The notes under the pieces were generated by a model. The model did no database searches, had not been told where the DNA came from, and worked only from the letters and a program-made list of their open reading frames with translations. DNA of 42,318 nucleotides from a virus: IMG/VR virus record IMGVR_UViG_2937098957_000001, positions 1 to 42,318 of that record. One strand, written 5' to 3'. This document shows positions 574 through 42,318 of this stretch, one piece after another; positions within the stretch are counted from its first letter, which is position 1, and every line of letters begins with the position of its first letter. Both the position numbers and the translations under genes were made by a program.

Positions 574-575
574 TT

Positions 576-1613
576 TCAGTCCTTTTTTGTTCCGCGACCG
601 ATAGCGTCAATTACCTCCTGTCCGGCGAGGTAGTGCTTGCGGATTATTGATTCGGCGTCTGCGCTCGAGTGGCCGGAAATCTCCGAAATGAGCTTGATCT
701 TCTCGTCGTGCGATCTGTCAAGATTAGCATAGGCGTATGTAATCGCTGTTCCGCGCAAGTCGTGGAAGGTGACACCCTTTACCCCGATCCTCGTCATCTC
801 CTTGCGCCATGAGGCTCGGAACCCGCTTGACGTCCAGTTCTGGCCGAACGAATTCACAAGCACTCTCTGGCGCCCTCCCTCCTTCGCCTCTCTCAGCAAC
901 GGCAGAATATCAGGCGCGGCGACGACACGCACCCGCGCGCCAGTCTTCCCCTGCTTGATCGACACGCGCTCGCCGTCAAAGGCCAGCGTCGGCATGGTGA
1001 GGATATCCGCCTGCCTCTGCATCGTCCAAAGGGCGATCCGCGCCACCTTTTGAATATGGGGTGCGGCCTTGGTCAACAGCGCTTCCAACTGCTCATCCGA
1101 CCAGATGATATCGCGCCGTGTTCCCTCGTGCAGCCGAGTTACCTCCTCGAGCGGATTGCGCAGGATGATTTCGTTTCCCTTCGCCCAAGAGAACACGCGC
1201 GCCAATAGCGCAATGTGCATGTCTGCGGTCCTCGGGGAATCCTTCATCGTGTCGCGCCAGTTCAGGAACAGGAGGCGGCTGCCGCGGGCCTCGATAGCCT
1301 TGATCGGGAATGTCTCGAATTTCAGACGGATCGTGGCGAACTGGCGCTCATAGTCGCGTCTGGTCGACGGCGCGAGCTTCAAATATTCTGCGGTCTTCCG
1401 GAAATCATCGATCAGGGATCCGATCGTGCCGGTCTGGGCGTCCTTTTCCCGGCCGCGCGTCAGGCGCACGAATTCCTGGGTGAACGCCTTCGTTCCTGGC
1501 TTGGCCTTGATCTGCGGAGCTCCCTTGCCGCGCCAGGCATAGTAGTAGGTTTTTACGGTGCCATCGGCCAACTTGACGTTGACCTTATGCACGCCCACCA
1601 GTTTTCCCTCCAT
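576..1613 (-). CDS. int: Tyrosine recombinase / phage integrase
   Basis: C-terminal catalytic motifs FHDLRGTAITYAY and GHSSADAESIIRKHY. Adjacent to the tRNA-like att fragment. ORF track 576..1616; ATG at 1613. Confidence 0.9.
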   Translation of the reverse strand: MEGKLVGVHKVNVKLADGTVKTYYYAWRGKGAPQIKAKPGTKAFTQEFVRLTRGREKDAQTGTIGSLIDDFRKTAEYLKLAPSTRRDYERQFATIRLKFETFPIKAIEARGSRLLFLNWRDTMKDSPRTADMHIALLARVFSWAKGNEIILRNPLEEVTRLHEGTRRDIIWSDEQLEALLTKAAPHIQKVARIALWTMQRQADILTMPTLAFDGERVSIKQGKTGARVRVVAAPDILPLLREAKEGGRQRVLVNSFGQNWTSSGFRASWRKEMTRIGVKGVTFHDLRGTAITYAYANLDRSHDEKIKLISEISGHSSADAESIIRKHYLAGQEVIDAIGRGTKKD

Positions 1614-1791
1614 CAAGCCACCTCTGCAACGCCGCTTCCGGGCTGTTGTCTTCTTCTTGCTTCACGGCAAACCGACGAGGCGCGAATTCTATCTCGCCTG
1701 TTGGATGCATAATAACCCGAACATCGTGCATTGCTGCAGCTGCCGCAGCATCCGCTATTTCCGACTTGGTGTATGTGCGGGCTCGGCTCAT
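1585..1791 (-). CDS. Hypothetical small protein upstream of int (possible excision/recombination-directionality factor, unproven)
   Basis: 68-aa ORF overlapping the int start by about 30 nt. Same strand, operon-like position. No recognisable motif. Confidence 0.45.
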   Translation of the reverse strand: MSRARTYTKSEIADAAAAAAMHDVRVIMHPTGEIEFAPRRFAVKQEEDNSPEAALQRWLDGGKTGGRA

Positions 1792-2380: not shown

Positions 2381-2415
2381 CTTGCCTCCTGCGCACACCG
2401 CGCCAAATATTCCGT

Positions 2416-2628: not shown

Positions 2629-2630
2629 GG

Positions 2631-4724: not shown

Positions 4725-4733
4725 GACTAGCCC

Positions 4734-5150: not shown

Positions 5151-5159
5151 GTTCTTTCC

Positions 5160-5891
5160 TTACGCGTTCATGGGATGGCGCATTGCCTTGGCGTCGGTCA
5201 CGCGCTCGTTGACGACAGAGGAGCCGGGGAATGTGTCTTCGATCGCCGAGACTGCATCGTTGGCGAACTTCGCCTTCAGTTCATCCTTCTTGGCGATGAA
5301 CCGCTGCTTGCTCTGCTCATCCATGCCGTTGATGACCTTCACGTTGTCTTTCCAGAAGGAGAGCAGCGCGCGCTCCGATCTAAGGGCCACGATTTCAGCC
5401 CAAAGGCTGTCAATTGCGGCCTTGTGCTTATCGACATAGTCCGGCTCTGGCGGCAGATTACGAACGAAATTCCAGGGGTCTCCTGTCCATTTCTTCCACT
5501 GCTTTTTGCCGTTGTATTCTGAGCACTCGCACGGAACCCACGGGGACGCGATGTGATACAGGTAGCGGCCAATGCCCCACTTGACGGCAGCTCGCTTAAG
5601 GGCGTCGGAAATAGCGCCCTTCTCGGCTTCAACGTCGCTGTCGCCAGCTCCATCGGCCTTTGTGATCCATTCTCCGTTTACGCGGATCGACAGGTAGCAA
5701 ACCGTTCTACTGCCATGGAATTCGTAGCGGTCGGACCAGCTCTCCGGGCCGCAGACCTCATCTAACCTGTCCATGACATCACGAGCATCGATGTAGGCGA
5801 GGGCGAGGGCCTTTGTGCCGTCCTTGGTTACGGACTGAGCGCGCCAGCTAATTGCCTCACGCGGAAATTCTGCTGCCAACCGATCGAACAT
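5160..5891 (-). CDS. Rad52/Sak-family single-strand annealing protein
   Basis: GAISDALKRAAVKWGIGRYLY signature. The start ATG overlaps the upstream TGA. Confidence 0.75.
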   Translation of the reverse strand: MFDRLAAEFPREAISWRAQSVTKDGTKALALAYIDARDVMDRLDEVCGPESWSDRYEFHGSRTVCYLSIRVNGEWITKADGAGDSDVEAEKGAISDALKRAAVKWGIGRYLYHIASPWVPCECSEYNGKKQWKKWTGDPWNFVRNLPPEPDYVDKHKAAIDSLWAEIVALRSERALLSFWKDNVKVINGMDEQSKQRFIAKKDELKAKFANDAVSAIEDTFPGSSVVNERVTDAKAMRHPMNA

Positions 5892-6613
5892 CACAACACC
5901 TTTTCCTCGATGACGTTGAAGCCACGAATTGAGCGTTTGCCGGCGCGCACAGCCTTGTCAGCGAGAGACTGTACGAATTCCATAAGGTCGCCGTTGTGCT
6001 CGACCCAAACCCAGGCGGCTGCTTCCTTGTTGTCGACCATGACCGCTCGGTGAACGGTACGAAGCGCGGTAGTGCGTCCTTCGCCCTTGGCGTGAGCCTT
6101 GGCGTTCTCAGCCTTGCGAGCTGCAGCGTCGGCAGCTTTGGCTTCCTGAACGAGGCGTTCCGCTTCTTCCCGGCTTTGGAGATTGGCCGCGTCACGCTGG
6201 CGCATTGCCTCCATAGCCTCTTGCTGGAGGCGCATGGCTTCCTCTCGCGCCTTCCTCGCCTCTTCCTCTTGCTTCCTTGCAAGGGCGATCAGATACGGCT
6301 TCAGCGCGGCCTTGACGGTCTCGTCGGCCGCGTCGGCCTTCGTGATGATCGGCTTATAGCGAGCCTGGACCTCTGCCTTTCCGTCATCGAACGGTTTGGC
6401 CTCAGCCTTCCGGTTCTTCTCGGCTTCTTTCGCTGCATCCTTGATGCGGGCTTGGAGGGTGTTCAGCGCGTCGGCCTGGGCCTGCGTGCTGACGGGGTCG
6501 CCATCCAGCCATTGGCGGGCTTCTTCGTACAGATCTTCGATAGCCTGTTTCGAGAGTTCAAACGGTGTCGGCTCTGGCGGATTGTTCCCGCCGATAACGG
6601 CCCTATCGTTCAT
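5891..6613 (-). CDS. Hypothetical coiled-coil protein (N-terminal IGGNNPPEP motif)
   Basis: 240-aa ORF with an A/E/K-rich central coil. Confidence 0.65.
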   Translation of the reverse strand: MNDRAVIGGNNPPEPTPFELSKQAIEDLYEEARQWLDGDPVSTQAQADALNTLQARIKDAAKEAEKNRKAEAKPFDDGKAEVQARYKPIITKADAADETVKAALKPYLIALARKQEEEARKAREEAMRLQQEAMEAMRQRDAANLQSREEAERLVQEAKAADAAARKAENAKAHAKGEGRTTALRTVHRAVMVDNKEAAAWVWVEHNGDLMEFVQSLADKAVRAGKRSIRGFNVIEEKVL

Positions 6614-6614
6614 G

Positions 6615-6812
6615 TTATGCAGCCTCCTGGTGTTTTTCTGCGCGTTCGCATTCGATGCGCCACTCTTCCCGGGCGCAGAGGATTTCGTACCAGTCGGCGT
6701 CTTCGTCGCGCCGGTCGGCCATCTTGTTATTACCCTCGGCTCGGTATTCGTCCGCCATCTGACGGGCGTGCTTTGCGTGGGCTCTGAGTGCTTCTGGTGT
6801 CGGGTAGCTCAT
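6615..6812 (-). CDS. Hypothetical protein
   Basis: 65-aa ORF in the operon chain. Confidence 0.55.
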   Translation of the reverse strand: MSYPTPEALRAHAKHARQMADEYRAEGNNKMADRRDEDADWYEILCAREEWRIECERAEKHQEAA

Positions 6813-6994
6813 CTTGCGACAGCCCTATCCAATGCGATCAAAATTGCCTTCTTGGCGTTTAGGTAAATCGCCTCCGTCAAAACCTTGTCCTCTTCGGGGT
6901 CTCCTCGGAGCAACGCTCTGTTCTGCGTGGCTGTCGCGACAGCATCGACCAACCAATCAGCGCGGTCGCATGCAATATGTTCGTTGGTGTTCAT
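6809..6994 (-). CDS. Hypothetical protein
   Basis: 61-aa ORF with a 4-nt overlap with the downstream gene. Confidence 0.55.
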   Translation of the reverse strand: MNTNEHIACDRADWLVDAVATATQNRALLRGDPEEDKVLTEAIYLNAKKAILIALDRAVAR

Positions 6995-7047
6995 CTACTT
7001 CGCTCCTGCGAAGGCAAGTTCAGCGGTTCTGGTGCGGAGAAAGGCAA

Positions 7048-7359
7048 TCATGACCGGCCCTCGGCTTTGGCGATGGCGGCACGCAGCTTTGCAACAGCCT
7101 TGCTCACTTTTCGTGAGCCCGTGGGGTTAATGACGCCAACCGCGTCAAGCTCTTTCAGGGCCTCAAGTAGGTCGGGTGCGGCGGCGAAAACATAAGGTCC
7201 GTAATTACCGAAATGCCCAGAGACGCAGAAATACCGGTCTTCGAAATGGCGTCCCTCGGACATGCCCTCAATCCAGAAATGTCGAGGGTCATCGGTATCT
7301 GCTAGGCGGACAGTCAACGGCTCCGCCTCTTTCACCGGGAAAAGATCAACCTTACTCAT
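7048..7359 (-). CDS. Hypothetical protein
   Basis: 103-aa ORF with a 4-nt overlap with the upstream gene. Confidence 0.6.
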   Translation of the reverse strand: MSKVDLFPVKEAEPLTVRLADTDDPRHFWIEGMSEGRHFEDRYFCVSGHFGNYGPYVFAAAPDLLEALKELDAVGVINPTGSRKVSKAVAKLRAAIAKAEGRS

Positions 7360-7580
7360 GCCGCGTCCTCCAGACTGCGAGTGCGGGACAGGGCTCGTCG
7401 CGCGAAGAAGTCGTGCTCTGCCGTCGCCTTCAGCGCTTCATCGAGTTCGTCAGTCGCGTCCAGGAAAGAGTCCATGCTGGTTGCGAGGTTGCAGCGCTTG
7501 TCTTCTATCCATCCGCGGATACGCGCCTTCTGCATGCGCAGCTCGTTCCGGAGGCGTTCAATTGCTTCTGCTTCGGTCAT
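7356..7580 (-). CDS. Hypothetical protein
   Basis: 74-aa ORF in the operon chain. Confidence 0.55.
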   Translation of the reverse strand: MTEAEAIERLRNELRMQKARIRGWIEDKRCNLATSMDSFLDATDELDEALKATAEHDFFARRALSRTRSLEDAA

Positions 7581-7582
7581 TT

Positions 7583-7957
7583 CTATTCCTCCCGGGATGC
7601 ACTGAGGGCGGCTTCGATTATGTCGCGACTGACGCCGTGTAATCCGCTCCCTTCGGCAAGGCGCTTGTTCAGGACGCGTGCCGCCGCGTCGATCATCGTC
7701 TCCGTGACTTCAATCTCTCCCCGACTCCGTTCGGAGCCCTTATCGGCGACGGCTGCAGGGTGATCGTGCTCGGTTGGCTGTATCTCCGCCAGCTTATAGC
7801 GGGCCTGCTGCGGGTGCTTAGGCCAGCGCCCGAACGTCACAACCGGAACTCCGGACGTGCTTTCGCAATACCAGATCCATTCGGGACGGTTCTCGACCAT
7901 TGATGGCTTTTCGTAGCGTCCAAGGTCTGCCTTGAGGGTTTCGTTCTCAGCGCGCAT
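7583..7957 (-). CDS. Hypothetical protein
   Basis: 124-aa ORF. Confidence 0.6.
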   Translation of the reverse strand: MRAENETLKADLGRYEKPSMVENRPEWIWYCESTSGVPVVTFGRWPKHPQQARYKLAEIQPTEHDHPAAVADKGSERSRGEIEVTETMIDAAARVLNKRLAEGSGLHGVSRDIIEAALSASREE

Positions 7958-8298
7958 TAGAGGCTCGCTCCTTCGATAACGGGACCGAACTGCTGGCGAG
8001 CGTTGTAGGTGCCGTGGTCATGCTGGGAGTAGCCGGCGCTGGGGCGGCCTTCGAATTCGCGTTCTAGTAGCTGCTTGATGAATGCGCTGTCGATCACGTC
8101 GCACGCGTCGACAGCTTTGTTCTGGATGCTGTCGTTCTCGGCGCCGCAGTGGAAAGCGTACGTCTGGAGTTCCGAATAGACGGACTGGAGAAACGCCTTC
8201 ATCACAGCGATGTCGGTCGACAAGGGCGAGAACCGGACCTCATCCGGGAGGGCGTCAACCGCTTCGTGCATGCGGGCTTTGATGCTTCGAATTGACAT
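7957..8298 (-). CDS. Hypothetical protein
   Basis: 113-aa ORF with GGAGG SD 5 nt upstream of the ATG. Confidence 0.6.
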   Translation of the reverse strand: MSIRSIKARMHEAVDALPDEVRFSPLSTDIAVMKAFLQSVYSELQTYAFHCGAENDSIQNKAVDACDVIDSAFIKQLLEREFEGRPSAGYSQHDHGTYNARQQFGPVIEGASL

Positions 8299-8309
8299 GT
8301 CAGCCTCCG

Positions 8310-8462
8310 TTAGGCGTTCTTAATCTGCTCTGCGGCGATCTGGCGGGCGTAGCGAGCGCGTTGGCGCGTCGAGCTGTGCGGGTAGGTCTTGCCGGTACGG
8401 GCGGAACGCTGACGAAGCATGTAGTTCGGCTTGTTGTCGGCGCCTGTGCTGTATTTCCGCAT
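8310..8462 (-). CDS. Small basic protein (50 aa), not in the ORF track
   Basis: Hand-translated: MRKYSTGADNKPNYMLRQRSARTGKTYPHSSTRQRARYARQIAAEQIKNA. GGAGGAATGAGAG precedes the ATG. Fills the gap between two operon genes. Confidence 0.45.
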   Translation of the reverse strand: MRKYSTGADNKPNYMLRQRSARTGKTYPHSSTRQRARYARQIAAEQIKNA

Positions 8463-8465
8463 CTC

Positions 8466-8990
8466 TCATTCCTCCGTTTGAGTGAGGCAACCAGATCTGC
8501 CTGTTTCTGGTCTGCCGTGGTTCTTGTGAAATCCGAATTTGGCTTCTGCAGCCTTCCGGGCCATGGCCGCTTCGATAAGCGTCGAGTAGCTCCCGAGAGC
8601 AAAATCCCTGCCTTTGTCGGCTATTTGCGCACGCCAAGGCTTATTGGGGTTGTTGCTCCGATAGACGCCGGTAACCCCGGAAGTGTTGTCTTTCCTGCGC
8701 CGCGTATTCCTATTGTTGTCCGCGACGGAAGCCTCTCGGAGATTGAAAAGTCGGTTGTCAGCCCGATCACCGTTAAGGTGGTCTATCACCTCGGGGTGGG
8801 TGCCGTAGGTCAGGATCCAGATGATGCGATGAACCCTGTGCCTCTTCCCACCAATCATGACGGCCAGATATCCTTCTTCGTTCTTCCAGCCCGCCCGGCG
8901 CAATGACCCGTCACGCTTCAGCCAAAACAGGCCACCCGTCTCCGGATCGTACTTGAAGTGCTTCTTCAGATTTTCCTGCGTCAGTCTCAT
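8466..8990 (-). CDS. HNH endonuclease with AP2-type DNA-binding domain
   Basis: YDPETGGLFW ... HRIIW ... VIDHLNGDRADNRLFNLREAS, then TSGVTGVY ... WRAQI (AP2-like). ORF track 8466..9053; ATG at 8990. Confidence 0.8.
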   Translation of the reverse strand: MRLTQENLKKHFKYDPETGGLFWLKRDGSLRRAGWKNEEGYLAVMIGGKRHRVHRIIWILTYGTHPEVIDHLNGDRADNRLFNLREASVADNNRNTRRRKDNTSGVTGVYRSNNPNKPWRAQIADKGRDFALGSYSTLIEAAMARKAAEAKFGFHKNHGRPETGRSGCLTQTEE

Positions 8991-9275
8991 GGGGGCGTCT
9001 TCGTGGTTGCTTTCGATGAAATGTAAGTTGCCATACAGCCAACAAAAGAGCAAGGGGTGGCGCGGAAGAAAATAAAAAAAAGTTGCTCTCTTGCCAACCG
9101 GGTTGGCGCCGTGGTATTCATCGCTGCAGATGATTGGGCGACCGGGTGCAATTCCCGAGCTGGTGAAGCCCGAGGCGCGGGAAGCGAAAGTCCTGCTGTG
9201 CTGCCAGAAAATGAGGACGGATCAGCCGGAAGGCGTCCTGCCATAAGCGACCGACCGACCGACGGTTCAGAAGCT

Positions 9276-32726: not shown

Positions 32727-33587
32727 ATGCCCCGTAACGGAAGCGGCACAGCCAGCATCGTCAACACGTTCACGCCGCTGACAACGGCTGACGCGAACGA
32801 TGTCAATGAGAATTTCACCGACATTGCCACGATGATCACGGACTCGCTGCCTCGCGACGGGCAGGCGGGAATGTCTGGGCAATTGTTGGCGATCTCGGGA
32901 ACGGCCACAGAGCCTGGTATCGCCTTCAACGCCGACACCAACACCGGCATTCGCCGGCCGTCTGGTGGCACACTCGCGCTGGTTTGCGGCGGCTCGGACA
33001 TTGCCACGCTCACAAGCACAGGCGTGGCGGTCAGCGTGGCCCCTACGACTGGGGATCACCTCACCAACAAAACCTACGTTGACGCGCAAATACCCGCCGC
33101 GACATCGCTTGTTCCGTCTGGCTCGGTGATGATGTTCGCAGCAAGCACTGCCCCGAACGGCTGGCTTGAATGCAACGGCGCCGCGGTCTCACGCACGACG
33201 TATGCGGATCTCTTCGCCGTTATCGGGACCACTTGGGGCGCGGGTGACGGGGCAACAACGTTCACCGTTCCAGACCTCCGCGGGGAGTTCGTTAGAGGTT
33301 GGGATCACGGCAAAGGCACAGATACCGGGCGCACTTTCGGGAGCTCCCAAGGGCAGGCAATCCAGCAACACAACCACTATCTCCCGACCAGTACCGGGGT
33401 CGCTGGCACAACCTGGAGCCTCGATGACACCCTGTGGCAACAGACGCAAGCAAATGCGAACCCATCTGGCGCTGGCACCCCAGCCCTCACCTTCAATGAC
33501 GCCAGCCAACAGAGCGGAACCCTAGGCACTTTCGCCACAGAGACCCGCCCGCGCAACGTCGCCCTCATGTACATCATCAAAACCTAA
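32727..33587 (+). CDS. Tail fibre protein with phage tail-collar domain
   Basis: APNGWLECNGAAVSRTTYADLFAVIGTTWGAGDGATTFTVPDLRGEFVRG collar-domain signature. The N-terminus MPRNGSG ... DSLPRDG is shared with the next gene. Confidence 0.8.
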   Translation: MPRNGSGTASIVNTFTPLTTADANDVNENFTDIATMITDSLPRDGQAGMSGQLLAISGTATEPGIAFNADTNTGIRRPSGGTLALVCGGSDIATLTSTGVAVSVAPTTGDHLTNKTYVDAQIPAATSLVPSGSVMMFAASTAPNGWLECNGAAVSRTTYADLFAVIGTTWGAGDGATTFTVPDLRGEFVRGWDHGKGTDTGRTFGSSQGQAIQQHNHYLPTSTGVAGTTWSLDDTLWQQTQANANPSGAGTPALTFNDASQQSGTLGTFATETRPRNVALMYIIKT

Positions 33588-33598
33588 AGGGTTCCCCT

Positions 33599-35755
33599 AT
33601 GCCCAGAAACGCTAGCGGCGATTTTACGCTGCCCACGAACGACTCGTCTCCCGCGGAACCCCGCAATGTCATCCGCTCGTCCGATTTCAACGAGCTGATG
33701 ACGGACATTTCGGCTGGTCTGACTGACAGCTTGTCGCGCTCGGGTGATGGCGCCATGCAGGCGAACCTGGCAATGGGTGGCTTTGATATTGCCAATGCAG
33801 GCAATGTAGGTGCTGTCTCTGTATTCGGCGTCACCCCCGGAGATGCCGGTAAGGAAATTCTCGCAGACGCCGTTCAGGCCGATGTGCGTGACTATCTGGA
33901 TGTACCCACCTACGTTTCAACGCGCACCGACCTGAAGGCGCTCGACACAGCTAAAGACACGGTTGCCTACCTCAAAGAGGACGGGCGCCAGGGGATCTTC
34001 CAATGGACGGCCGGCGACTTCTCCGCGCAGGTGGCCGCCGATACGCAGGAGGGCGTTTACGTCAAAGCTGACGCCATCGCCTCGACTTCTGGCGCGTGGG
34101 TGCGTGTCGGTGACCCAACCGTGTACCATTTCGGCGGGTCCGCGAGCGCAAATAGCGCTACCGCAATCTCTGCTATGGCGACAGTCCTGGGATACGTCCG
34201 CTTCCCAGCTGGCGCTACCAAGCTTGGCGCAAATCTGACGATCGATGTTCCCGTCTCATTTCAAGACGCGGCATATGTTACGGTGGACGCTACGTTCACA
34301 CTGACTATCACCGAAGTAATCGACAGCCCGAAGCAGCACATTTTCCGCGGCGACGGGCTAGTTGTCCTTAATCATGACGCGGATACGGGAGAGCCCTCCA
34401 GGCAAATTCATATTTCTTGGTTTGGGGCATTCCCCGGAGAGGATGACGTAGACCAGGCACCTGCGATACAAAAGGCATTTACCGCATTGGGCAATGCCCG
34501 TGAGAGTAAAGTACAATTCGACATCGGTAATTATACCATGATGACGGGCGTTACTGTTACTCGTGGTGCGTGGGTTCTTGGCAGTGGAAACCGACGAACT
34601 GTATTCCTAGTCAAGGGTGATGGCTTCGATGTATTCAATACCGGACACACAGCCTGCCGCTTCTCAGACATCCAGTTTGAAAACCACTCTGACAATGTCT
34701 CTGCTAGAATAAGTCCGTTTATTCGGATTAGCCATGACTTCTGTTTGATCGAGAATGTCTACGCTCAAGAGGCATTCAACCAGATCATCGTTGAGACGGC
34801 GGGAAGTAACTGCACCATCCGTGAATTTAACATGGTGTGGAGAACGTACCCGTTTACTGCCGGTTCTGCGGGGATCCTTGTCCGTGGCTCTGGCTGTAAC
34901 ATCAGTGGGATATTCTCAAACTTCTCGTCTGGTGGCGGCCCAGAGGCTCTTATTGCCGTTGGGACAGGTGCGGGTGCAAACGTCTCCGCTACTTATATCA
35001 ATAACGTCAGCTATATCTCTGCCTCCATCGGCGTCCTGATCCATGGAGATAGCGTTATTATTTCCAGGGGACAGATCACGGGGATAAACTATCGTGGTGG
35101 CTCGGGCAGCGCTCCGCAGGCCGTCAAGTTCCTCACCTCGGGGACTGGGGGTATTTTCGGGTTCACGGTTGACGTTGTTACGGTAAACGGGACTGCAACG
35201 GCGGACCTTACATTCCAGTGCAACGGGAGTGGCGACCTGAAGCAGATCACGGTAGATAACCTCTATAGCTCCGGTTCTTCCGGTAATGGCATAGAGTTTA
35301 TCAGAACGGCTGGAATACTAACCGACATCGTTATTGGAGCCACCGTCAACGTCAGGAATAGAACAAATCCAGTATTTTTCTCTGGGGTTAATTCCGGAAT
35401 TCGAATTGACCCTAGGATCATGGTCGGAGGGGATGTCGCTGGCGTATTCTTCCGGGGCAGCGTTGCCGATGATACGGCCTTCTCGATTGCTCTTGGCCGC
35501 GCGGTATTCTCGGGTACAGCTATCATCACGGGCGGCGTTGTGGAAATGGGGATATTCGGGATACGGGCCGCGCCGACGCCAGCAGTCGGGGAGAATAGGA
35601 TAACTGACGCCAATGTGGTGGCAGTTCCCACGGCTCTCACCGGCACGACGGGAGCAGACGGGAACCTAACACTGGGCGTTCAAGACGGGGTCCTGTATGT
35701 CGAGAACCGAACTGGGAGTGCCCAGAATATCAGCCTCACCGTGATGGGGGCTTAG
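33599..35755 (+). CDS. Tailspike with predicted right-handed beta-helix (pectate-lyase-like depolymerase) domain
   Basis: 718 aa. The N-terminus MPRNASG ... DSLSRSGDGAM is homologous to the fibre. The repetitive G/N/S/V-rich C-terminal two-thirds are typical of beta-helix spikes (inference). Confidence 0.65.
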   Translation: MPRNASGDFTLPTNDSSPAEPRNVIRSSDFNELMTDISAGLTDSLSRSGDGAMQANLAMGGFDIANAGNVGAVSVFGVTPGDAGKEILADAVQADVRDYLDVPTYVSTRTDLKALDTAKDTVAYLKEDGRQGIFQWTAGDFSAQVAADTQEGVYVKADAIASTSGAWVRVGDPTVYHFGGSASANSATAISAMATVLGYVRFPAGATKLGANLTIDVPVSFQDAAYVTVDATFTLTITEVIDSPKQHIFRGDGLVVLNHDADTGEPSRQIHISWFGAFPGEDDVDQAPAIQKAFTALGNARESKVQFDIGNYTMMTGVTVTRGAWVLGSGNRRTVFLVKGDGFDVFNTGHTACRFSDIQFENHSDNVSARISPFIRISHDFCLIENVYAQEAFNQIIVETAGSNCTIREFNMVWRTYPFTAGSAGILVRGSGCNISGIFSNFSSGGGPEALIAVGTGAGANVSATYINNVSYISASIGVLIHGDSVIISRGQITGINYRGGSGSAPQAVKFLTSGTGGIFGFTVDVVTVNGTATADLTFQCNGSGDLKQITVDNLYSSGSSGNGIEFIRTAGILTDIVIGATVNVRNRTNPVFFSGVNSGIRIDPRIMVGGDVAGVFFRGSVADDTAFSIALGRAVFSGTAIITGGVVEMGIFGIRAAPTPAVGENRITDANVVAVPTALTGTTGADGNLTLGVQDGVLYVENRTGSAQNISLTVMGA

Positions 35756-36075
35756 TGTCGGGAGAAGGGGTGGTCCGTCCGTCGATGTTCCGTGTAGATG
35801 TACCCGGCGTCTTCGACTTCTTTTTCCGGATCTTCGGGGCCTTCTTCTGGCTCTTTCATGACGAAGAAAACACCAGCCGCACAAGCGATAAATAGCGCCG
35901 CCCTGTATCCGTCGCTAGGCAGCAGAAACGAAATGCCAGCGGCGGCGAGCGCCAAACTCAAAACAACTCGCATGTTTGCAATCCCATATGAACGGGGGAG
36001 GGGCCGGCTCTCTCCCGACGCATCTCTCTCGGAGTTGCCGAATTCGCCAATCTCTAGGTCCATAACTTTAGCCAT
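35752..36075 (-). CDS. Small membrane protein co-transcribed with the glycosyltransferase
   Basis: ATG 36075 follows AGGAGA. MRVVLSLALAAAGISFLL ... AALFIACAAGVFFV has two TM segments. Acidic C-terminus. Confidence 0.55.
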   Translation of the reverse strand: MAKVMDLEIGEFGNSERDASGESRPLPRSYGIANMRVVLSLALAAAGISFLLPSDGYRAALFIACAAGVFFVMKEPEEGPEDPEKEVEDAGYIYTEHRRTDHPFSRH

Positions 36076-36085
36076 TGGTCTCTCC

Positions 36086-38395
36086 TCAAAGCTGCACAGG
36101 GAATTCATTCTCACCAATCACGCGCTTTAGGAAGGGGTATTTTACCACAAGGAGGCGTTTTCTCACTCTCCGGTTGCCTGGAAGCTGTCGCGCTGCGGTC
36201 TTCAGGTGCAAAATCGCCTTGTCCCTGTTCCCGGCGCGGATGTGCATTTCGGCGGCCGAGCGCAGAAGGTTGGGCTTGGAATTGTTCTTCCGATACTCGG
36301 TCTCGAAATGGGCCGCTGCTTCGGTGAATTTCCCGCTGGTGACGAAATTAGCGATCGAGGCAGCGGCGGCTTTTGCGGCACTTTTTGCCACGGGCTTTAC
36401 TGCTGCACCGTTACCATTCAGGTTTGCATGGTAGCGGTACGGATCGAAAAGAACCGACCGGCGAAGATCGAAGGCCGGATACTGATAAATAGCCGGCGCG
36501 TATCCTGGAATACGGACCTCGGTGAACCTGATGTCCTTGACCTTGGTCCGGTTCGAAAGATTGCTGAAAGTCGCTACTTCCGCCTTCCAGTCAGCGAAGC
36601 TGTAAAGCTCGTTCAACAGGTAGTGGAAGAACTGAACGACCTTGTTTTTGTCAACTGGGGCGACGTGCCGAAGGGTCTCGGCCATCTGCTCGGCATCAAC
36701 AAACGGTTCATTTACCCCGTCGATCGAATAGAAGCAGGGGCCGTAGTAAAACACACGCTTGTTGAATGCCATCGAGATTACGCCAACGCCGGAGTTAAAC
36801 AGGGCAACGGCTCCGGCCGCTTCGAGCAGATCATGCACATGGTAGGCGTCCGCGCAGACAGCAGAGGACAGTTCGAACTTCTGAACCGCCAGAGGATGGT
36901 TCTTGTAGACCATCACCCAATCGCTCGGCAGAGACAGCGACAGGCGTTTCAGTTCTAGGAGGTAGGCATCATATTCCCGGCGCTTCTCCGAAAAGAGCGT
37001 CGTTACCGTGTCGTCCGCGAGCTGTAGCGGGACGAATAGGATCTTCGCCCCATCGGGGATATTCAGACGGTGGCGCAACAGGGCCGCGCCAACGCGACCG
37101 GACTGCTTTTCAAGGGAGTGCTCGCCGAACCGTATGTCGGCAATATAGGCCTTTACGGATTGCTCCTGCTCCTCCGTCAGCGGCTTGGCCCAATGTTCTT
37201 CGCGGTAGCTGGGGCTTTCAACGCAGAGGCCGCCTTTGTCGAAGTAGAGGGACCGGGGCAGGGCGCCGCGCTCGCCGACGATCGGTTCTATCCCGAGATT
37301 GCGGAGCGCGTCATAGACCTTCTTTCGCCAAGGGAGGCCATAGGGGTTCCACATGAGAACAGACCGGGGGTTCTGCTCGGCGATGTCTGCGGCGTAACGC
37401 TCGGGGTCTGCTCGGCCGTTCTCGTCAATGATCGTGGGGTTTGCCAGCGCATGGAGAACCGCTTCGTTGGCAATGTGGGGATTGAATCCCATGATGATGT
37501 CGGGCGGCTGGTTTGGATCACGGCGCGCCGGCACCTTTCTGGTCGCTTGATACCGTTCGGCCTTCTCTGAGGCCAGCTTGATGTTCGATTGGCCGCTCCG
37601 CCATGACAGGGGCTCATGAAAGAGGTGGAACGCATACATGCCCTTGCGGGCGAGATAATCGCCGTGCATCCGGTAGAGCGCACGCCAGCCATCAAATTGC
37701 GTCGTGTCGTTCAGGTTCCACGTCTTGGTGACCTGAAAGTCCCGCGGCTTTTCGATCCGGTCGTTGACCAGCAGGAGCCGGAACACAAAGTCCCGGTCTT
37801 CGCCGCCCCATCCTGCAAAATTCTCATCGAAGGCGCCGACGTAAAGGGCGGTTTTGCGTCTGACGGCGATGACGGAACTTGCGGGAGCGTAGTGTTGCAT
37901 TGACGAATTGGCATCGTGGCCTCGCGGATCTTCCAGCAGCGCGCCGGTAAGAGCCCGCTCGTACTCGGCATCCATGCCGTTGTTGAAGACGCGCTCGGAC
38001 TGCGAGGCGGAAAGATAAACGGCCGGGACAGTCAGGAAATTGAAGGGGGTTTCGTCTAGCAGCCCCAGTTCTCGGATCATGCACTGGTAGAAATCGGACT
38101 TATAGGCAAGGTCGATATCTTCGAAGCAAACCCACTCGGTTTTCGAGGCGTCGATGCCTACGTTCCGAGCGCGGGAAAGGGAGAAAGGCTCCTCCGCTGT
38201 ATCCAGGCGGATGAACTCATAGCCGCGAGGCTCGCAAAACGCGCGGATATCCTCGGCGACCGTGACCGGGCTTCCGTCGTCAACGATGATCGTGTGAACG
38301 CTCTGCAGATCGAGGGCATCCCTCAGTTCAAGACGCCTTCTGTAATCGGAAAAGTCATCCGTTCTGATGGAAATGATCAGCGTAATCGCGTTCAT
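36086..38395 (-). CDS. Multidomain glycosyltransferase: GT2 + KpsC/KpsS-type capsule-synthesis-like domain + TPR-like tail
   Basis: N-terminus: ITLIISIRT ... IIVDDGSP ... FEDIDL ... GWGGEDRDF (GT2). Middle: VGERGALPRSLYFDKGGL ... ILFVPLQLADDTV (Capsule_synth-like). C-terminus: GKFTEAAAHFE ... AGNRDKAILHLKTAA (TPR-like). Confidence 0.75.
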   Translation of the reverse strand: MNAITLIISIRTDDFSDYRRRLELRDALDLQSVHTIIVDDGSPVTVAEDIRAFCEPRGYEFIRLDTAEEPFSLSRARNVGIDASKTEWVCFEDIDLAYKSDFYQCMIRELGLLDETPFNFLTVPAVYLSASQSERVFNNGMDAEYERALTGALLEDPRGHDANSSMQHYAPASSVIAVRRKTALYVGAFDENFAGWGGEDRDFVFRLLLVNDRIEKPRDFQVTKTWNLNDTTQFDGWRALYRMHGDYLARKGMYAFHLFHEPLSWRSGQSNIKLASEKAERYQATRKVPARRDPNQPPDIIMGFNPHIANEAVLHALANPTIIDENGRADPERYAADIAEQNPRSVLMWNPYGLPWRKKVYDALRNLGIEPIVGERGALPRSLYFDKGGLCVESPSYREEHWAKPLTEEQEQSVKAYIADIRFGEHSLEKQSGRVGAALLRHRLNIPDGAKILFVPLQLADDTVTTLFSEKRREYDAYLLELKRLSLSLPSDWVMVYKNHPLAVQKFELSSAVCADAYHVHDLLEAAGAVALFNSGVGVISMAFNKRVFYYGPCFYSIDGVNEPFVDAEQMAETLRHVAPVDKNKVVQFFHYLLNELYSFADWKAEVATFSNLSNRTKVKDIRFTEVRIPGYAPAIYQYPAFDLRRSVLFDPYRYHANLNGNGAAVKPVAKSAAKAAAASIANFVTSGKFTEAAAHFETEYRKNNSKPNLLRSAAEMHIRAGNRDKAILHLKTAARQLPGNRRVRKRLLVVKYPFLKRVIGENEFPVQL

Positions 38396-38427
38396 TTGCG
38401 GAGCGGCCCTCGTTGTGGAAGGCGTCC

Positions 38428-38456
38428 CCGATATCAGCGCTGGCAGGAGGTTTCAA
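38428..38456 (-). promoter_or_regulatory. Candidate sigma70-type promoter for the glycosyltransferase operon
   Basis: Minus strand reads TTGAAA-N17-TATCGG, about 35 nt upstream of the ATG at 38395. Confidence 0.25.
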
Positions 38457-38494
38457 CCTTCAGTTTCGACTGGCTGCCATGATTTGAATTCGCG

Positions 38495-38517
38495 CCCCGC
38501 CATCGAGCGGGGTTTTT
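38495..38517 (+). terminator. Intrinsic terminator in the divergent intergenic region
   Basis: CCCCGC-CATCGA-GCGGGG, followed by TTTTTCTTT. Confidence 0.6.
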
Positions 38518-38549
38518 CTTTGCCCAATCTCCAAACATTCGAGGTGACC

Positions 38550-39779
38550 ATGGCCCTTGCGCCCGTCCCAGACGACGCGTTGCAGGAAACAGTTTCGCTG
38601 TATCTGGCAAACGGCAACAACCAACAGAAAACGGCGGACGCGCTAGGACTGGCGCGTTCTACAGTGCAAAACAGGCTCACACAGGCGGCAAGAAAGGGGC
38701 TTCTCCCGCCAGCAGTGCCGGCTATGCCGGGATTTGAGGTCACCCGCCTCCAGACTGGCCCACGCGGCACGACGATTGAGCAGCGCCCGGAGAAGGGCGA
38801 AGTCTTCGAAATGCCGGAAGGCCACCGCATCAAGGGCGTCTCCGCCTTCATCGATCCTGACGGCCGGTTGCGTGGCCAGTGGGTGAAAACGAAGGAGAAC
38901 GAGCTAGACCCGCAAACCATCGCAGATTTCTTCAAGGGCGCCTTTCAAGATTACGAGGCCCCGAGCCGTCCGACCATCGCAGCCCCCGACAGCTTCGACG
39001 GGGATCTGCTGACGCTCATTCCCTGCAATGACTGGCACATCAATCTCCAGGTATGGGGCAAGGAGGCAAGCGAGAACTGGGATCTGAAGATTGCCGAGGA
39101 CACGATCGGAACAGGCATTGAGGACGCCATCGAGCGCTCGCCATCCGCAGGGGTCGCCATTGTTCTCGGAGGAGGCGACCTTCTCCATGCCGACAACAAC
39201 GAGAACCGGACAGCCAAATCAGGCAACGTCCTGCAGGCAGACCAGCGGCACCAGAAGGGGCTCGAAGTCGCCATACGGCTGAAGGTCCGCACGGTTGATG
39301 CGGCGCTGAAGAAGAATGCCCGGGTTATCGTCCGGATCCTCCCGGGCAACCACGATGAATATTCGGCCATCGCGGTCGCTTATTTCCTGCTCGCCTATTA
39401 CCGCAACGAGCCGCGGGTGACCGTCGATGTCGATCCGTCACTCTTCTTCTGGTACGTGCACGGCAAGGTGATGCTGGGCGGAACGCACGGCCACACCGTC
39501 AAGCTGCAGGATATGGCCTCGATCATGGCCCACCGCCGCGCGGAAGACTGGGGCAAGACGAAGTTCCGGTACATCCACGGCTTCCACGTTCATCACAAGC
39601 AGAAGTTCGTCACGGAAGGCGAGGGTGTCGTGATGGAGAGCCATCAAGCGCCGATCCCGATGGATGCCTGGCACTATGGCGCCGGCTTCAACTCCGGGCG
39701 CTCCCTCCAGACAATCACTTATCATGCGGAGTTTGGCGAAATCAGCCGAGTACGCCGCGCAATCCTTGAGGCCGCGTAA
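38550..39779 (+). CDS. HTH domain fused to a calcineurin-like metallophosphoesterase
   Basis: HTH: NQQKTADALGLARSTVQNRLTQAARKG. MPE motifs in order: NDWH, GGGDLLH, PGNHDE, GGTHGH, HGFHVHH. ATG 38550 follows GAGGTG. Confidence 0.7.
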   Translation: MALAPVPDDALQETVSLYLANGNNQQKTADALGLARSTVQNRLTQAARKGLLPPAVPAMPGFEVTRLQTGPRGTTIEQRPEKGEVFEMPEGHRIKGVSAFIDPDGRLRGQWVKTKENELDPQTIADFFKGAFQDYEAPSRPTIAAPDSFDGDLLTLIPCNDWHINLQVWGKEASENWDLKIAEDTIGTGIEDAIERSPSAGVAIVLGGGDLLHADNNENRTAKSGNVLQADQRHQKGLEVAIRLKVRTVDAALKKNARVIVRILPGNHDEYSAIAVAYFLLAYYRNEPRVTVDVDPSLFFWYVHGKVMLGGTHGHTVKLQDMASIMAHRRAEDWGKTKFRYIHGFHVHHKQKFVTEGEGVVMESHQAPIPMDAWHYGAGFNSGRSLQTITYHAEFGEISRVRRAILEAA

Positions 39780-42219: not shown

Positions 42220-42318
42220 TTACAGGCGAGATTACGCCAGTCGCTTGTTTTTGCTTTAGATCATCTGAGACTCTTAATCAGCGGGTCCACGGTTCGAGCC
42301 CGTGATCACCCACCAAAA
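42220..42318. repeat. Terminal direct repeat copy 2
   Basis: Identical to 1-99. Confidence 0.95.
42265..42315 (+). tRNA. Partial tRNA: second copy of the tRNA-Lys(CTT)-like 3' fragment
   Basis: Identical to 46-96. The upstream sequence is phage DNA, not a tRNA 5' half. Confidence 0.6.

Follow-up and report, generated by a model that had tools for sequence, protein, structure and literature searches.

The window, the entire 42,318-nt sequence of IMGVR_UViG_2937098957_000001, is a complete temperate phage of Sinorhizobium, as indicated by an integrase gene and a terminal repeat. The repeat is exact and 99 bp long (1-99 = 42220-42318), and the integrase match to phrog_1 bears out the temperate lifestyle proposed in the initial annotation. 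Besides the integrase, the phage gene content comprises terminase, portal, major capsid protein, Erf, and exonuclease genes. The same prophage region is contained in a 101-kb S. meliloti contig, and the element is integrated in bacterial contigs. The features examined are collected in Table 1. A glycosyltransferase (GT) gene and a small partner gene form a cassette that is antisense to the late genes, as had been noted, with the tailspike gene on one side and the lysis genes on the other. Phage carriage of the GT gene was also found in IMG/VR contigs and in a prophage of S. medicae USDA1037. A tblastn comparison of the GT protein with 50,697 GenBank phage records gave no match, a PADLOC search for defence systems likewise returned no match, and searches of Pfam, PHROG, and NCBIfam detected no homology to GtrABC, Oac, Wzy, or Iap.

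Table 1. Features of the phage and of the glycosyltransferase cassette (positions in the window)
Feature	Position	Strand	Evidence
Integrase	576..1616	-	phrog_1 match, 2e-36
Tailspike, 718 aa, convergent with the cassette	33599..35755	+	phrog_14558 on C-terminus; AF2 beta-helix
Shared mobile cassette: tailspike receptor-binding part, small-gene slot, and GT	34002..38383	.	DNA common to prophages L014-L016 and L021
Small membrane protein, 107 aa, two-helix hairpin and acidic tail	35752..36075	-	Start site, hydropathy, tail charge
Predicted K-antigen (hexose-Kdo) capsule polymerase gene, bifunctional glycosyltransferase, 769 aa	36086..38395	-	ORF, Pfam, AF2, Foldseek, dN/dS
C-terminal helical TPR-like tail, residues ~648-769	36089..36454	-	Sub-cutoff TPR matches; AF2 helices
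Module 2, residues ~295-645, retaining beta-Kdo-transferase-like	36461..37513	-	Capsule_synth, KpsC/WbbB alignments, Foldseek
Module 1, residues ~1-290, GT-A family-2-type hexosyltransferase	37526..38395	-	Pfam, profile match, invariant columns
Candidate promoter TTGAAA-N17-TATCGG, 5' of GT	38428..38456	-	Sequence present; -10 poor
Terminator-like GC hairpin and T-run	38494..38523	+	In the 154-bp gap from the GT start to the next gene

The GT open reading frame is intact, and an identical 769-aa protein is encoded on 16 contigs. The five motifs originally quoted for it (IIVDDGSP, FEDIDL, GWGGEDRDF, ERGALPRSLYFDKGGL, and ILFVPLQLADDTV) are all present in the translation. The AlphaFold (AF2) model of the protein has a pLDDT of 91.2. 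Two GT modules reside in one polypeptide, both are supported above the Pfam cutoffs, and the catalytic motifs of both are intact; in an alignment of 38 family members, the phage copy retains all of the invariant catalytic residues. Module 1 matches Glyco_tranf_2_2 (PF10111) at residues 31-261 (E 1.4e-24; 87.5 bits versus a cutoff of 27.3) and Glycos_transf_2 (PF00535; E 5e-8; 33.4 bits versus a cutoff of 23.3). D93 and D95, the DxD motif within FEDIDL, are invariant in the 38 family members, as are E199 and D200. When the family profile was compared with the PDB, the best match for module 1 was the chondroitin polymerase K4CP (4e-13), and beta4GalT was also matched. Foldseek likewise returned K4CP (1.4e-10), together with PmHS2, SpsA, and other GT-A enzymes, and the GT-A fold is modeled with pLDDT >90 across the module. 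The Pfam, profile, and Foldseek matches thus agree on the GT2 head described earlier.

Module 2 matches Capsule_synth (PF05159) at residues 442-563 (E 4e-6; 27.0 bits versus a cutoff of 20), and the match spans positions 137-273 of the 310-position model, which is its C-terminal half only. A precomputed PF05159 match exists for most family members. The profile comparison with the PDB gave KpsC (3e-7, and 1.6e-7 for 6mgd), WbbB (5e-4 and 4e-3), and E. coli KpsC-N (5e-3). In Foldseek, module 2 matched the modified GT-B-like fold of KpsC and WbbB, with E ~1e-9 and a TM score of 0.65 normalised to the target for KpsC 6mgb and 6mgd, and 8e-8 for WbbB 5fa1. The invariant residues of the module are E375-R376-G377, Q458...D462, K498/H500/P501, and N534-S535-G536. 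In the alignments, Q458 and D462 fall on 'GQVesD' in T. dismutans KpsC and on 'DQtfnD' in E. coli KpsC-N, and the invariant K498-N-H500-P501 aligns with 'yKpHP' of KpsC and 'RaHP' of WbbB. The Kps-type module proposed earlier therefore stands, with Capsule_synth above its cutoff and the QxxxD and HP motifs aligned with those of KpsC. The nucleophile of the double-displacement mechanism is D232 in WbbB. In KpsC it is D160, the aligned Asp of Q-x-x-x-D (PMC10148158, PMC9587256). D462 is the predicted nucleophile of the phage protein, with H500-P501 as its conserved HP motif. The aligned KpsC Asp is printed as 161 versus D160 in the literature, an offset that we ascribe to construct numbering.

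Because the identity of module 2 to KpsC is only 14-18%, its CAZy family is left as a candidate assignment. The donor could also be another CMP-ulosonic acid, such as pseudaminic acid, rather than Kdo, given this low identity and the half-covered Capsule_synth model. Pseudaminic acid is present in some Sinorhizobium K-antigens. A beta-Kdo linkage, formed with retention from CMP-beta-Kdo, is suggested indirectly by the KdsA-type and KpsF neighbours of homologues and by the beta-Kdo of K-antigens (PMC4881576).

The C-terminal tail gives matches to TPR_14, TPR_19, and TPR_16 at residues 685-749, all below the Pfam cutoffs, whereas AF2 models this part as six helices (648-760); the helices make the TPR-like tail of the initial annotation probable, though the profiles are sub-cutoff. 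Some family members carry a precomputed PF14559 match, and many distant homologues (85-89% query coverage) are missing the tail. In group-2 capsule polymerases, both priming and processivity depend on TPR domains (PMC11666461). Downstream of the GT gene, the ORF first given for the partner (35752..36117, minus strand) opens at TTG 36117, a start that had been taken to place it in overlap with the GT gene. The start is most likely ATG 36075 instead, judging from a GAGGAG at 36082-36087, which lies 6 nt 5' of this ATG and runs into the stop codon of the GT gene. On identical contigs, the 107-aa form was likewise the choice of the gene caller. With this start, the partner and GT genes are free of overlap; placement of GAGGAG over the GT stop suggests that the partner is translationally coupled to the GT. 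Hydropathy places hydrophobic segments at ~36-54 and ~57-74, and the tail contains 11 D/E versus 5 K/R, in keeping with the two-TM, acidic-tailed protein described before. Its ORF shares 4 bases (35752-35755) with that of the tailspike, as claimed, with the stop codons interlocked. The partner family is restricted to Sinorhizobium (37 clusters) and occurs in rkp-3-type loci as well as next to tailspikes.

Of the claim that the cassette has its own promoter, the sequence itself can be kept: TTGAAA-N17-TATCGG is present upstream of the GT gene (38456..38428, minus strand). However, its -10 element is weak, and a consensus promoter scan did not call it; the same scan found no excess of promoter-like sites in the region over shuffled sequence. 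The terminator-like hairpin at 38494..38523 could halt late-operon read-through antisense across the cassette.

The GT2 + Kps fusion belongs to a family of 458 representatives at E<=1e-30. The phage protein is 74-85% identical to rkp-3-region proteins of S. medicae, S. meliloti, and Sinorhizobium sp., and these homologues map to the rkp-3 K-antigen region of pSymB, which varies from strain to strain. The loci of S. medicae and Sinorhizobium sp. contain TylF-type methyltransferases, an ABC-2 permease and ATPase, and an RkpZ-like Capsule_synth gene. Neighbours of the S. meliloti pSymB homologue are KpsF/GutQ, GalE, a 'capsular polysaccharide biosynthesis protein', and ABC-transporter genes. Outside Sinorhizobium, the N. 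wadsworthii homologue is accompanied by CtrABCD-type export genes and a KdsA-type gene, and the copies in Acinetobacter, Achromobacter, and Brachymonas adjoin KpsM/T-like and tandem Capsule_synth genes. Every non-phage homologue with an examined context lies in an ABC-transporter capsule locus, and none lies with LPS genes. The target, first given as capsule or LPS, is narrowed by these contexts to K-antigen capsule of the rkp-3/kps type. Sinorhizobium K-antigens (KPS) are polymers of the form [Hex -> beta-Kdo]n and are often 2-O-methylated (PMC4881576, Table 1); their structure is strain-specific and matters in nodulation (PMC4881576). Variable methyltransferase and GT genes of rkp-3 alter KPS and confer phage resistance (PMC5429615).

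The adjoining gene encodes a depolymerase-type beta-helix tailspike, which agrees with the earlier reading: phrog_14558 and the AF2 fold support it, and its best Foldseek matches are capsule and O-antigen depolymerase tailspikes. Residues ~135-718 (nt 34002-35755) constitute an exchangeable receptor-binding beta-helix, and nucleotide identity with a second phage lineage is 70%, over 34002-35760 only. The segment 34002..38383 is the sole DNA common to this phage and the siphovirus-type prophages L014-L016 and L021, in which the small gene (35761-36095) is replaced. The receptor-binding part and the GT are also common to the IMG/VR contigs, and nothing else is. GC content is 0.545-0.573 in the cassette versus 0.607-0.611 in the flanks. 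In the equivalent slot of an S. fredii-type prophage, L108, an unrelated GT8 + Capsule_synth fusion and a methyltransferase lie beside a tailspike that is 54% identical, and the GT8 fusion retains the DxD, QxxxD, and HP motifs. Three backbones thus carry GT-type cargo beside the receptor-binding gene and antisense to the late operon. Tailspike and GT are not always linked: no GT adjoins the tailspike homologues of 88% and 70% identity, and prophage L105 has a 254-aa unknown protein between tailspike and endolysin.

The GT gene is under strong purifying selection, with dN/dS of 0.07-0.09 in all modules. The value is ~0.07 for the phage GT versus host K-antigen-locus enzymes, and purifying selection also holds between the two phage-borne GT lineages, which are separated by dS ~0.9. 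Domain identity, motif conservation, fold, capsule-locus context, phage carriage, cassette linkage, and this selection all come from direct analysis.

We consider it probable that the 769-aa protein is a single-chain K-antigen polymerase of the ABC-transporter-dependent type, drawn from the Sinorhizobium rkp-3 pool and serving lysogen conversion. Module 1 would catalyze DxD-dependent hexosyl transfer as a GT-A (GT2) enzyme, and module 2 a retaining beta-Kdo transfer of the KpsC/WbbB kind. By alternating, the two would produce [hexose -> beta-Kdo]n, the repeat typical of Sinorhizobium K-antigens. Growth of the chain would take place on the host lipid-linked poly-Kdo primer, and its export would rely on the host Rkp/Kps transporter. 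Both the TPR-like tail and the coupled two-TM protein probably hold the enzyme at the inner membrane or organise it there, and probably aid priming or processivity. UDP- and GDP-hexoses and CMP-Kdo are housekeeping metabolites; therefore, a lysogen could in principle acquire a new or additional K-antigen from this gene alone. The sugar specificity, the use of primer and exporter from the host, and, in lysogens, both expression and exclusion are inferred. Expression of the cassette from the prophage would alter the capsule receptor of the phage, which would lead to superinfection exclusion and to protection from other capsule-specific phages, with legume compatibility possibly altered as a side effect. 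K-antigen conversion in lysogens is most likely the function of the cassette, and the comparative evidence points toward the surface-polysaccharide conversion first suggested. Because an intact host-type enzyme that probably builds the hexose-Kdo capsule adjoins a capsule-cutting tailspike, the prophage probably rewrites the coat seen by phages and by legume hosts. A point against this reading is that a methyltransferase accompanies the GT both in the chromosome and in the second phage lineage, whereas this phage has none.

The K-antigen could also be made in lysogens for the benefit of the bacterium (symbiosis, plant-defence evasion, or stress protection), with the tailspike linkage arising as a by-product of a tail/lysis recombination hotspot. 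This would accord with the strain specificity of KPS and its relevance to nodulation (PMC4881576) and with the tailspikes that stand without a GT. The varied cargo of the tailspike-endolysin slot, including the L105 protein and the L108 GT8 fusion, suggests a general moron slot. However, DNA homology between the two otherwise unrelated backbones covers exactly the GT and the receptor-binding part of the tailspike, a pattern that points to their transfer together. Field phage resistance is tied to rkp-3 swaps, and the swap isolates are not symbiosis-defective (PMC5429615). We therefore regard a purely bacterial benefit as unlikely, although phage and bacterial benefits are not mutually exclusive. 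Modification of LPS, by a hexose-Kdo cap or a terminal beta-Kdo on O-antigen or core in the manner of WbbB (GT99), would amount to O-antigen seroconversion. Module 2 does match WbbB, and beta-Kdo transferases of that type act on O-antigen; moreover, titles cited in PMC4881576 suggest that rkp-3 mutations may also affect LPS. Still, KpsC outscores WbbB, two modules with a TPR tail have the architecture of a processive polymerase, and the examined chromosomal and megaplasmid homologues accompany ABC-2 transporter, KpsF, KdsA, or KpsC/S-like genes, all of which makes an LPS target improbable.

In some phages, such as mycobacteriophages, GT and methyltransferase genes near structural genes serve virion glycosylation. 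Such a role in lytic growth, or a remodelling or depletion of capsule precursors that aids release, would suit a gene located among structural and lysis genes. We think it very improbable here, as the cassette runs against the late operon and encodes an enzyme that is close in identity to those of host K-antigen loci, keeps every catalytic residue, and evolves under the constraint described above; the coupled inner-membrane hairpin protein, too, occurs in chromosomal polysaccharide loci. That the cassette is inert, hitch-hiking DNA without function in the phage could be argued from the promoter scan, which gave no confident promoter, but we give this explanation almost no credence against an intact ORF, an identical protein on 16 contigs, full retention of the invariant catalytic residues, and strong purifying selection that persists even between phage lineages.

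The fusion enzyme itself is already known, as a large bacterial family. What appears to be undescribed is that the gene is borne by a complete temperate phage, that the phage-borne gene is under strong purifying selection (dN/dS ~0.08), and that, in two different phage backbones, the GT moves as one cassette with the receptor-binding part of the tailspike. More tentatively, and with less than even confidence, we propose that K-antigen type in Sinorhizobium is partly phage-mobilised. Temperate phages would shuttle single-gene hexosyl-GT::beta-Kdo-GT polymerases of at least two unrelated kinds (GT2 and GT8), with or without O-methyltransferases, between pSymB rkp-3 and prophages, as a cassette with the matching depolymerase-tailspike domain. 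If so, a prophage could write a new capsule on the universal poly-Kdo primer, resetting phage susceptibility and legume compatibility, and in strains reported to make two K-antigens, such as S. fredii USDA205 (alpha-Gal-Kdo and 2-O-MeMan-Kdo), one of the two may be prophage-encoded.

A close bacterial counterpart is the Sinorhizobium rkp-3 region of pSymB, in which the same small two-TM protein and a TylF-type methyltransferase are neighbours of the GT; this region determines K-antigen structure and phage sensitivity (PMC5429615). In contrast, the phage copy has no methyltransferase, its small gene lies downstream rather than upstream, and its flanks are the tailspike and lysis genes. KpsC/KpsS (GT107) and the N-terminal module of WbbB (GT99) share with module 2 the fold, QxxxD, HP, an NSG-type nucleotide-binding loop, and Capsule_synth. 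KpsC/KpsS synthesise the poly-Kdo linker, which is conserved, and WbbB adds a cap to O-antigen, whereas module 2 is fused to a GT2 and belongs to the serotype-specific part of capsule loci. GT99/GT107-like modules of serotype-specific polymerases are already catalogued in E. coli (PMC13171606). The initial annotation did not recognise the GT2-Kps fusion as a described system; the family is in fact widespread in bacteria, includes Neisseriaceae proteins, and has a characterised analogue in K. kingae CsaA (811 aa). CsaA is the closest such analogue, a functional one, likened here by its published description: it is a single polypeptide of the same domain order and similar size. Its N-terminal part is a GalNAc transferase and its middle/C-terminal part a beta-Kdo transferase, and this single gene sets the type a capsule, [3)-beta-GalNAc-(1->5)-beta-Kdo-(2->]n on a poly-Kdo linker, in an ABC-transporter capsule system (PMC5070880, PMC9592894). 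CsaA is chromosomal, whereas the GT described here is phage-borne, and a TPR tail or two-TM partner is unreported for CsaA. E. coli K13 KrkA and K4CP are, as predicted for the phage protein, single-chain polymerases with two activities. Both are encoded in region 2 of group-2 capsule loci, and each makes a disaccharide repeat on its own (PMC12887879). KrkA differs in families and order, with an N-terminal GT140 Kdo-transferase and a C-terminal PRPP-dependent ribosyltransferase (ribofuranosyltransferase), and K4CP combines two GT-A modules, with no Kdo involved. To our knowledge, neither is known from phages.

Among seroconverting temperate phages are P22 (gtrABC), Sf6 (oac), D3, and E. coli CUS-3 (neuO). 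Epsilon15 is the cited paradigm of seroconversion (PMC5537653), and wzy genes on Acinetobacter prophages bring about capsule conversion in A. baumannii (PMC13228068, PMC9241936). Such phages place surface-glycan genes beside the tailspike or tail-fibre gene and outside the late operon, and they alter their own receptor; the position is shared by the cassette described here. In the P22, Sf6, epsilon15, D3, wzy, and neuO types, an existing repeat unit is modified or re-linked by glucosylation, acetylation, or an alternative Wzy linkage. The cargo of the Sinorhizobium phage, in contrast, is predicted to be an entire cytoplasmic polymerase, serving a capsule that contains Kdo and depends on an ABC transporter, and might specify the whole polymer by itself.

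Bases 1-99 of the window recur exactly at 42220-42318 as a 99-bp direct terminal repeat, which indicates that the record is a complete phage genome of ~42.2 kb, either circularly assembled or terminally redundant. The phage is complete and temperate, and its principal genes are listed in the table; no tRNA genes were found in the window. Its nearest portal relatives, Brucella Tb-type and Myxococcus Mx8 phages, reach just 30-35% identity, and the phage is therefore not a described one. Proteins identical to its tailspike and to the small two-TM protein beside it carry S. meliloti names at NCBI, and its late region recurs, 99.99-100% identical, in several assemblies of sequencing runs and inside an S. 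meliloti contig of 101.6 kb (L010). Comparison of the prophage copy in L010 with the window shows an identical late region and a different early region, which carries RecT and Sipho_Gp157 rather than Erf and exonuclease and has a junction without an integrase. This difference is mosaicism between otherwise identical phages.

Coordinates of features in the window and at the compared loci
Feature	Sequence	Coordinates	Strand	Remarks
Integrase	window	576-1616	-	
Erf and exonuclease genes	window		-	
Terminase, portal, major capsid protein, then tail genes	window		+	
Collar-domain fibre	window	32727-33587	+	after head and tail genes
Tailspike	window	33599-35755	+	718 aa; after collar-domain fibre
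Tailspike residues 105-172	window	33911-34114		
DNA shared with second lineage, tailspike part	window	34002-35760		
Partner (small two-TM protein)	window	35752-36075	-	107 aa
Glycosyltransferase (GT)	window	36086-38395	-	769 aa
DNA shared with second lineage, GT part	window	36096-38383		
Candidate promoter	window	38456-38428		
Terminator-like hairpin	window	38494-38523	+	
HTH/exonuclease gene	window	38550-39779	+	409 aa
Early region compared	L010	1-6078		compared with window 100-9000
Phyllobacterium family member	L102	9430-12229		
Rm41 chromosomal element	L103 (HE995405.1)	411377-427446		
Slot protein	L105	9347-10111	-	254 aa
Methyltransferase and GT8 fusion	L107/L108	9384-12285		fusion of 742 aa
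GT8 fusion, second copy	L113	2218-5155		
63-aa small-protein homologue	L109-L112	7001-7192		
Tandem fusion paralogues	L115	9839-14713		799 and 766 aa

The open reading frames claimed in the initial annotation are present as described, including that of the GT. The partner is indeed a co-oriented small gene with two hydrophobic segments and an acidic tail. A TTG start at 36117 was dropped in favor of the ATG at 36075, which most likely begins the gene and has a ribosome-binding site. The sequence GAGGAG lies six bases upstream of this ATG and overlaps the GT stop codon, which suggests that the pair is coupled in translation and does not overlap. At its other end, the partner does run into the tailspike gene, as had been stated: the two stop codons interlock in a 4-bp overlap (35752-35755). 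The candidate promoter TTGAAA-N17-TATCGG is present upstream of the GT, although it is a poor match and was not called by a promoter scan.

A gap of 154 bp separates the GT start from the next gene and contains a strong terminator-like GC hairpin, GCCCCGCCATCGAGCGGGGT, with a T-run; this hairpin faces late-operon transcription coming across the antisense cassette. The next gene encodes a protein with an N-terminal HTH (PucR-type HTH_30) and a body matching phrog_704 "DNA repair exonuclease"; its position between the conversion cassette and the lysis genes is unusual for such a gene. Of the GenBank phages, Sinorhizobium phage AP-16-3 alone has a DNA relative of this gene. This gene also accounts for the only blastn match of window positions 35000-39000, 113 bp in the same phage, and the GT gave zero tblastn matches against 50,697 GenBank phage records. 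The GT gene is thus in no described phage. PADLOC defence models matched neither the GT, its partner, nor the next gene.

The two catalytic assignments made for the GT are both supported by Pfam. Module 1, annotated as a GT2 head, matches Glyco_tranf_2_2 (1.4e-24), and module 2, annotated as KpsC/KpsS-like, matches Capsule_synth at 27 bits, the cutoff being 20. Residues invariant across 38 aligned family members include D93/D95 (DxD) and E199/D200 in module 1 and E375-R376-G377, Q458, D462, K498, H500, P501, and N534-S535-G536 in module 2. For module 1, a profile built from this alignment matches beta-1,4-galactosyltransferases and the chondroitin polymerase of E. coli K4 (4e-13). Profiles also match KpsC (3e-7 with the full-length profile, 1.6e-7 with the domain-only profile), the GT99 domain of WbbB (5e-4 and 4e-3), and E. 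coli KpsC-N (5e-3). In the profile alignments, the family's "vpLQlxdD" aligns with "vpGQVesD"/"vvDQtfnD" of KpsC, and its "yKnHP" aligns with "yKpHP" of KpsC and "RaHP" of WbbB. From these alignments, the module 2 motifs are predicted to be the nucleophile-Asp motif and HP motif of retaining beta-Kdo transferases, the mechanism of which has been described (PMC10148158, PMC9587256). An AlphaFold model built from the family alignment is confident (pLDDT 91.2, pTM 0.78), and its Foldseek matches are K4CP (1.4e-10), KpsC (~1e-9, TM 0.65 normalised to the target), WbbB, and heparosan synthase 2. In this model the C-terminal ~120 residues fold into helical repeats, in keeping with the TPR-like tail proposed initially, but TPR profiles match only below threshold.

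The view that a GT2-Kps fusion is undescribed was not sustained. The two-module fusion is common, with 85 clusters in a word-indexed search and 458 representatives at E<=1e-30 in an exhaustive profile search, most of the top 150 covering both modules; the class is known and barely characterised. A non-phage locus in Sinorhizobium holds GT copies at 74-85% identity, in the company of TylF-type O-methyltransferases, ABC-2 permease and ATPase genes, a 443-aa protein, an epimerase, and a 266-aa Capsule_synth protein. On annotated pSymB megaplasmids, the same site contains one or two family members together with KpsF/GutQ, GalE, a "capsular polysaccharide biosynthesis protein," methyltransferases, and an ABC permease; MocE, LacI, and AsmA genes lie on its flanks, as they do at L001, one of the chromosomal or megaplasmid loci. 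This site is the portion of the rkp-3 K-antigen region that varies among strains; exchange of its methyltransferase, hypothetical, and glycosyltransferase genes among isolates is reported to accompany changes in K-antigen (KPS) and phage resistance (PMC5429615). In N. wadsworthii, a family member lies opposite ctrABCD-type export genes, beside an epimerase and a KdsA-type gene, and in Acinetobacter, Achromobacter, and Brachymonas a member adjoins KpsM/T-like and tandem Capsule_synth genes. These locations indicate that the family supplies the serotype-specific enzyme in capsule loci that depend on an ABC transporter. Most Sinorhizobium K-antigens have the form [hexose -> beta-Kdo]n, in which the hexose is often 2-O-methylated (PMC4881576, Table 1), and a poly-Kdo glycolipid is general in the genus (PMC4881576); this chemistry fits the predicted hexosyl- and Kdo-transferase enzyme. 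Two further arrangements were observed. On pSymB of S. meliloti ml46 (L115), two paralogues of the fusion family stand in tandem within one rkp-3 region; they have 26-34% identity to the window protein and may make a more complex repeat unit or two polymers. In a Phyllobacterium MAG (L102), small HTH genes and a phage tail-assembly-chaperone gene (Phage_TAC_18) adjoin a 52% identical member, which may thus be phage-associated in a different genus as well.

At the DNA level, the window is homologous to the chromosomal loci only within the GT coding sequence (74-78%). A GT 87-88% identical to that of the window occurs in a second set of elements, consisting of three IMG/VR viral contigs, a prophage of S. 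medicae USDA1037, and a short assembly contig. This second lineage has a different backbone, which includes a J-like fibre, a distal tail protein, and a tape measure protein; the other proteins of the window phage that were queried all lacked a match in it. The only DNA that the two lineages share is the receptor-binding part of the tailspike (70%) and the GT (82%); at the protein level, the 829-aa fibre of the second lineage is 74-76% identical to window tailspike residues ~105-718. The slot between GT and tailspike is filled in the second lineage by a different small two-TM acidic-tail gene, again with a 4-bp convergent overlap, and its cassette retains a TylF methyltransferase 92% identical to the chromosomal one. 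The GC content of the cassette (0.545-0.573) is below that of the flanking tail genes (0.611) and of the next gene (0.607).

The tailspike is modeled as a right-handed beta-helix with pLDDT >85 from ~residue 180 on. Its top structural matches are Acinetobacter-phage capsule-depolymerase tailspikes, HK620, Sf6, CBA120 TSP2, and Klebsiella K2 depolymerases, and some of its homologues contain a pectate-lyase-type Pfam domain. Residues 105-172 share 60% identity with tail fibre p023 of Rhizobium phage 16-3 and 54% with a protein of phage RHph_X2_24; 16-3 is the classical phage of S. meliloti that depends on the K-antigen (references in PMC5429615). This segment, at which homology to other phage backbones starts, looks like a shared adaptor or junction module. 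A NosD/beta-helix gene at chromosomal locus L005 was also considered as a tailspike relative and gave no tblastn match.

The small-protein family is found only in Sinorhizobium (37 clusters), and an acidic tail behind a hairpin core (L-x-x-A-x-x-G...L-P-S...C-A) is common to its members. Members adjoin this GT, tailspike homologues (consecutive locus tags), and, within the same variable polysaccharide region, unrelated GT2 and methyltransferase genes. The most widespread homologue (63 aa, >100 contigs) neighbors a 715-aa GT2, two methyltransferases, and a HemolysinCabind/Peptidase_M10_C protein. The 715-aa GT2 was tested for membership in the window GT family and does not belong to it. The small protein therefore belongs to the variable polysaccharide region in general and is not bound to one GT. 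It presumably acts as a membrane tether or organiser for a cytoplasmic polymerase.

A parallel arrangement exists in a prophage named by NCBI from S. fredii USDA 205, the tailspike of which is 54% identical to that of the window. Here, the convergent slot before the endolysin holds a methyltransferase and a 742-aa fusion of Glyco_transf_8 (3e-36) and Capsule_synth (5e-29) domains that retains DxD, Q575xxxD579, and H612-P613. An 87% identical copy is present on an IMG/VR contig, where its convergent 723-aa neighbor has no PHROG match. Homology of the GT8 fusion to the window GT was rejected because BLASTP finds no significant similarity, making it an independent analogue. Two unrelated fusions of a hexosyl-GT to a beta-Kdo-GT thus hold the same place behind related tailspikes. 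S. fredii USDA205 is reported to make two K-antigens, alpha-Gal-Kdo and 2-O-MeMan-Kdo, and given the GT8 fusion in a USDA 205-type prophage, one of them might be prophage-encoded.

The linkage of tailspike and GT is not universal. S. meliloti Rm41 has an 88% identical tailspike without an adjoining GT, and another prophage (L105) has one of 70% identity, likewise without a GT. The Rm41 locus (L103) is a small element with integrase, Arc, and HTH genes, a gene of internal-virion-protein type (391 aa), and the 689-aa tailspike. The 16 kb examined contains neither head genes nor a GT, and the element may be what is left of a prophage or may resemble a satellite that has a receptor-binding protein of its own. 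In L105, the convergent slot between tailspike and GH108 endolysin contains a 254-aa protein with no Pfam or PHROG match, which is another moron in the tailspike-adjacent slot.

The window GT is best supported as a captured K-antigen polymerase. In a lysogen, the enzyme would extend the host poly-Kdo primer with a hexose-Kdo repeat, the polymer would leave via the host's exporter, and the altered capsule would present a changed receptor to this phage and to others. We infer both the donor sugars of the GT and its expression in the lysogen, and the tailspike may recognise the old polymer or the new one. There is precedent for such an enzyme: in K. kingae, the single gene csaA, of the same architecture, suffices for the type a capsule, and a locus swap switches capsule type (PMC5070880, PMC9592894). 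Group-2 capsule polymerases need TPR domains for priming and processivity (PMC11666461).

Four rival readings were considered. That the bacterium gains from the enzyme, rather than phage exclusion being served, is compatible with a captured K-antigen polymerase, and as an explanation in its own right it is rather unlikely. The relationship of module 2 extends to WbbB as well as KpsC, and LPS modification of the WbbB kind is an improbable role for a protein whose relatives reside in capsule loci. A function in lytic growth, such as virion glycosylation, has very little likelihood. The GT dN/dS is 0.05-0.11 in every comparison and every module, including between the two phage lineages, whose divergence has reached dS ~0.9; these ratios point to strong purifying selection, and the idea that the gene is inert cargo is scarcely credible.

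If the GT is a captured K-antigen polymerase, the consequences extend beyond this phage. The rhizobial K-antigen is both a phage receptor and a determinant of symbiotic compatibility, and cassette-bearing prophages could therefore explain why it, like phage resistance, is strain-specific and turns over rapidly in field populations. The tailspike receptor-binding domain and the polymerase would be paired modules for glycan recognition and glycan synthesis, usable to deduce depolymerase specificity, and the large enzyme family is a candidate source of one-enzyme systems for Kdo-containing polysaccharides.

Among known enzymes, CsaA is a probable relative of the GT family by architecture, and no other characterised member was found. 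An in silico catalogue for E. coli includes serotype-specific polymerases that have GT99/GT107-like Kdo-transferase modules (PMC13171606), and KrkA provided the first structure of a repeat-unit Kdo-transferase in 2026 (PMC12887879). No report of a phage-borne polymerase of the GT2-Kps type, or of a tailspike-polymerase cassette, was found in the literature searched, which was not exhaustive. Among phages, an Acinetobacter prophage wzy drives capsule conversion (PMC13228068, PMC9241936), and the window cassette shares with seroconversion phages the placing of conversion genes beside the tailspike. However, the GT has no homology with GtrABC, Oac, or Wzy proteins and differs from these systems in kind, being predicted to be a complete cytoplasmic polymerase for an ABC-transporter capsule. 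Whereas phage seroconversion as known alters or re-links existing glycan units, a self-sufficient phage-borne polymerase for a Kdo-containing capsule of this type would constitute a different and simpler capsule switch, for which one gene is enough.
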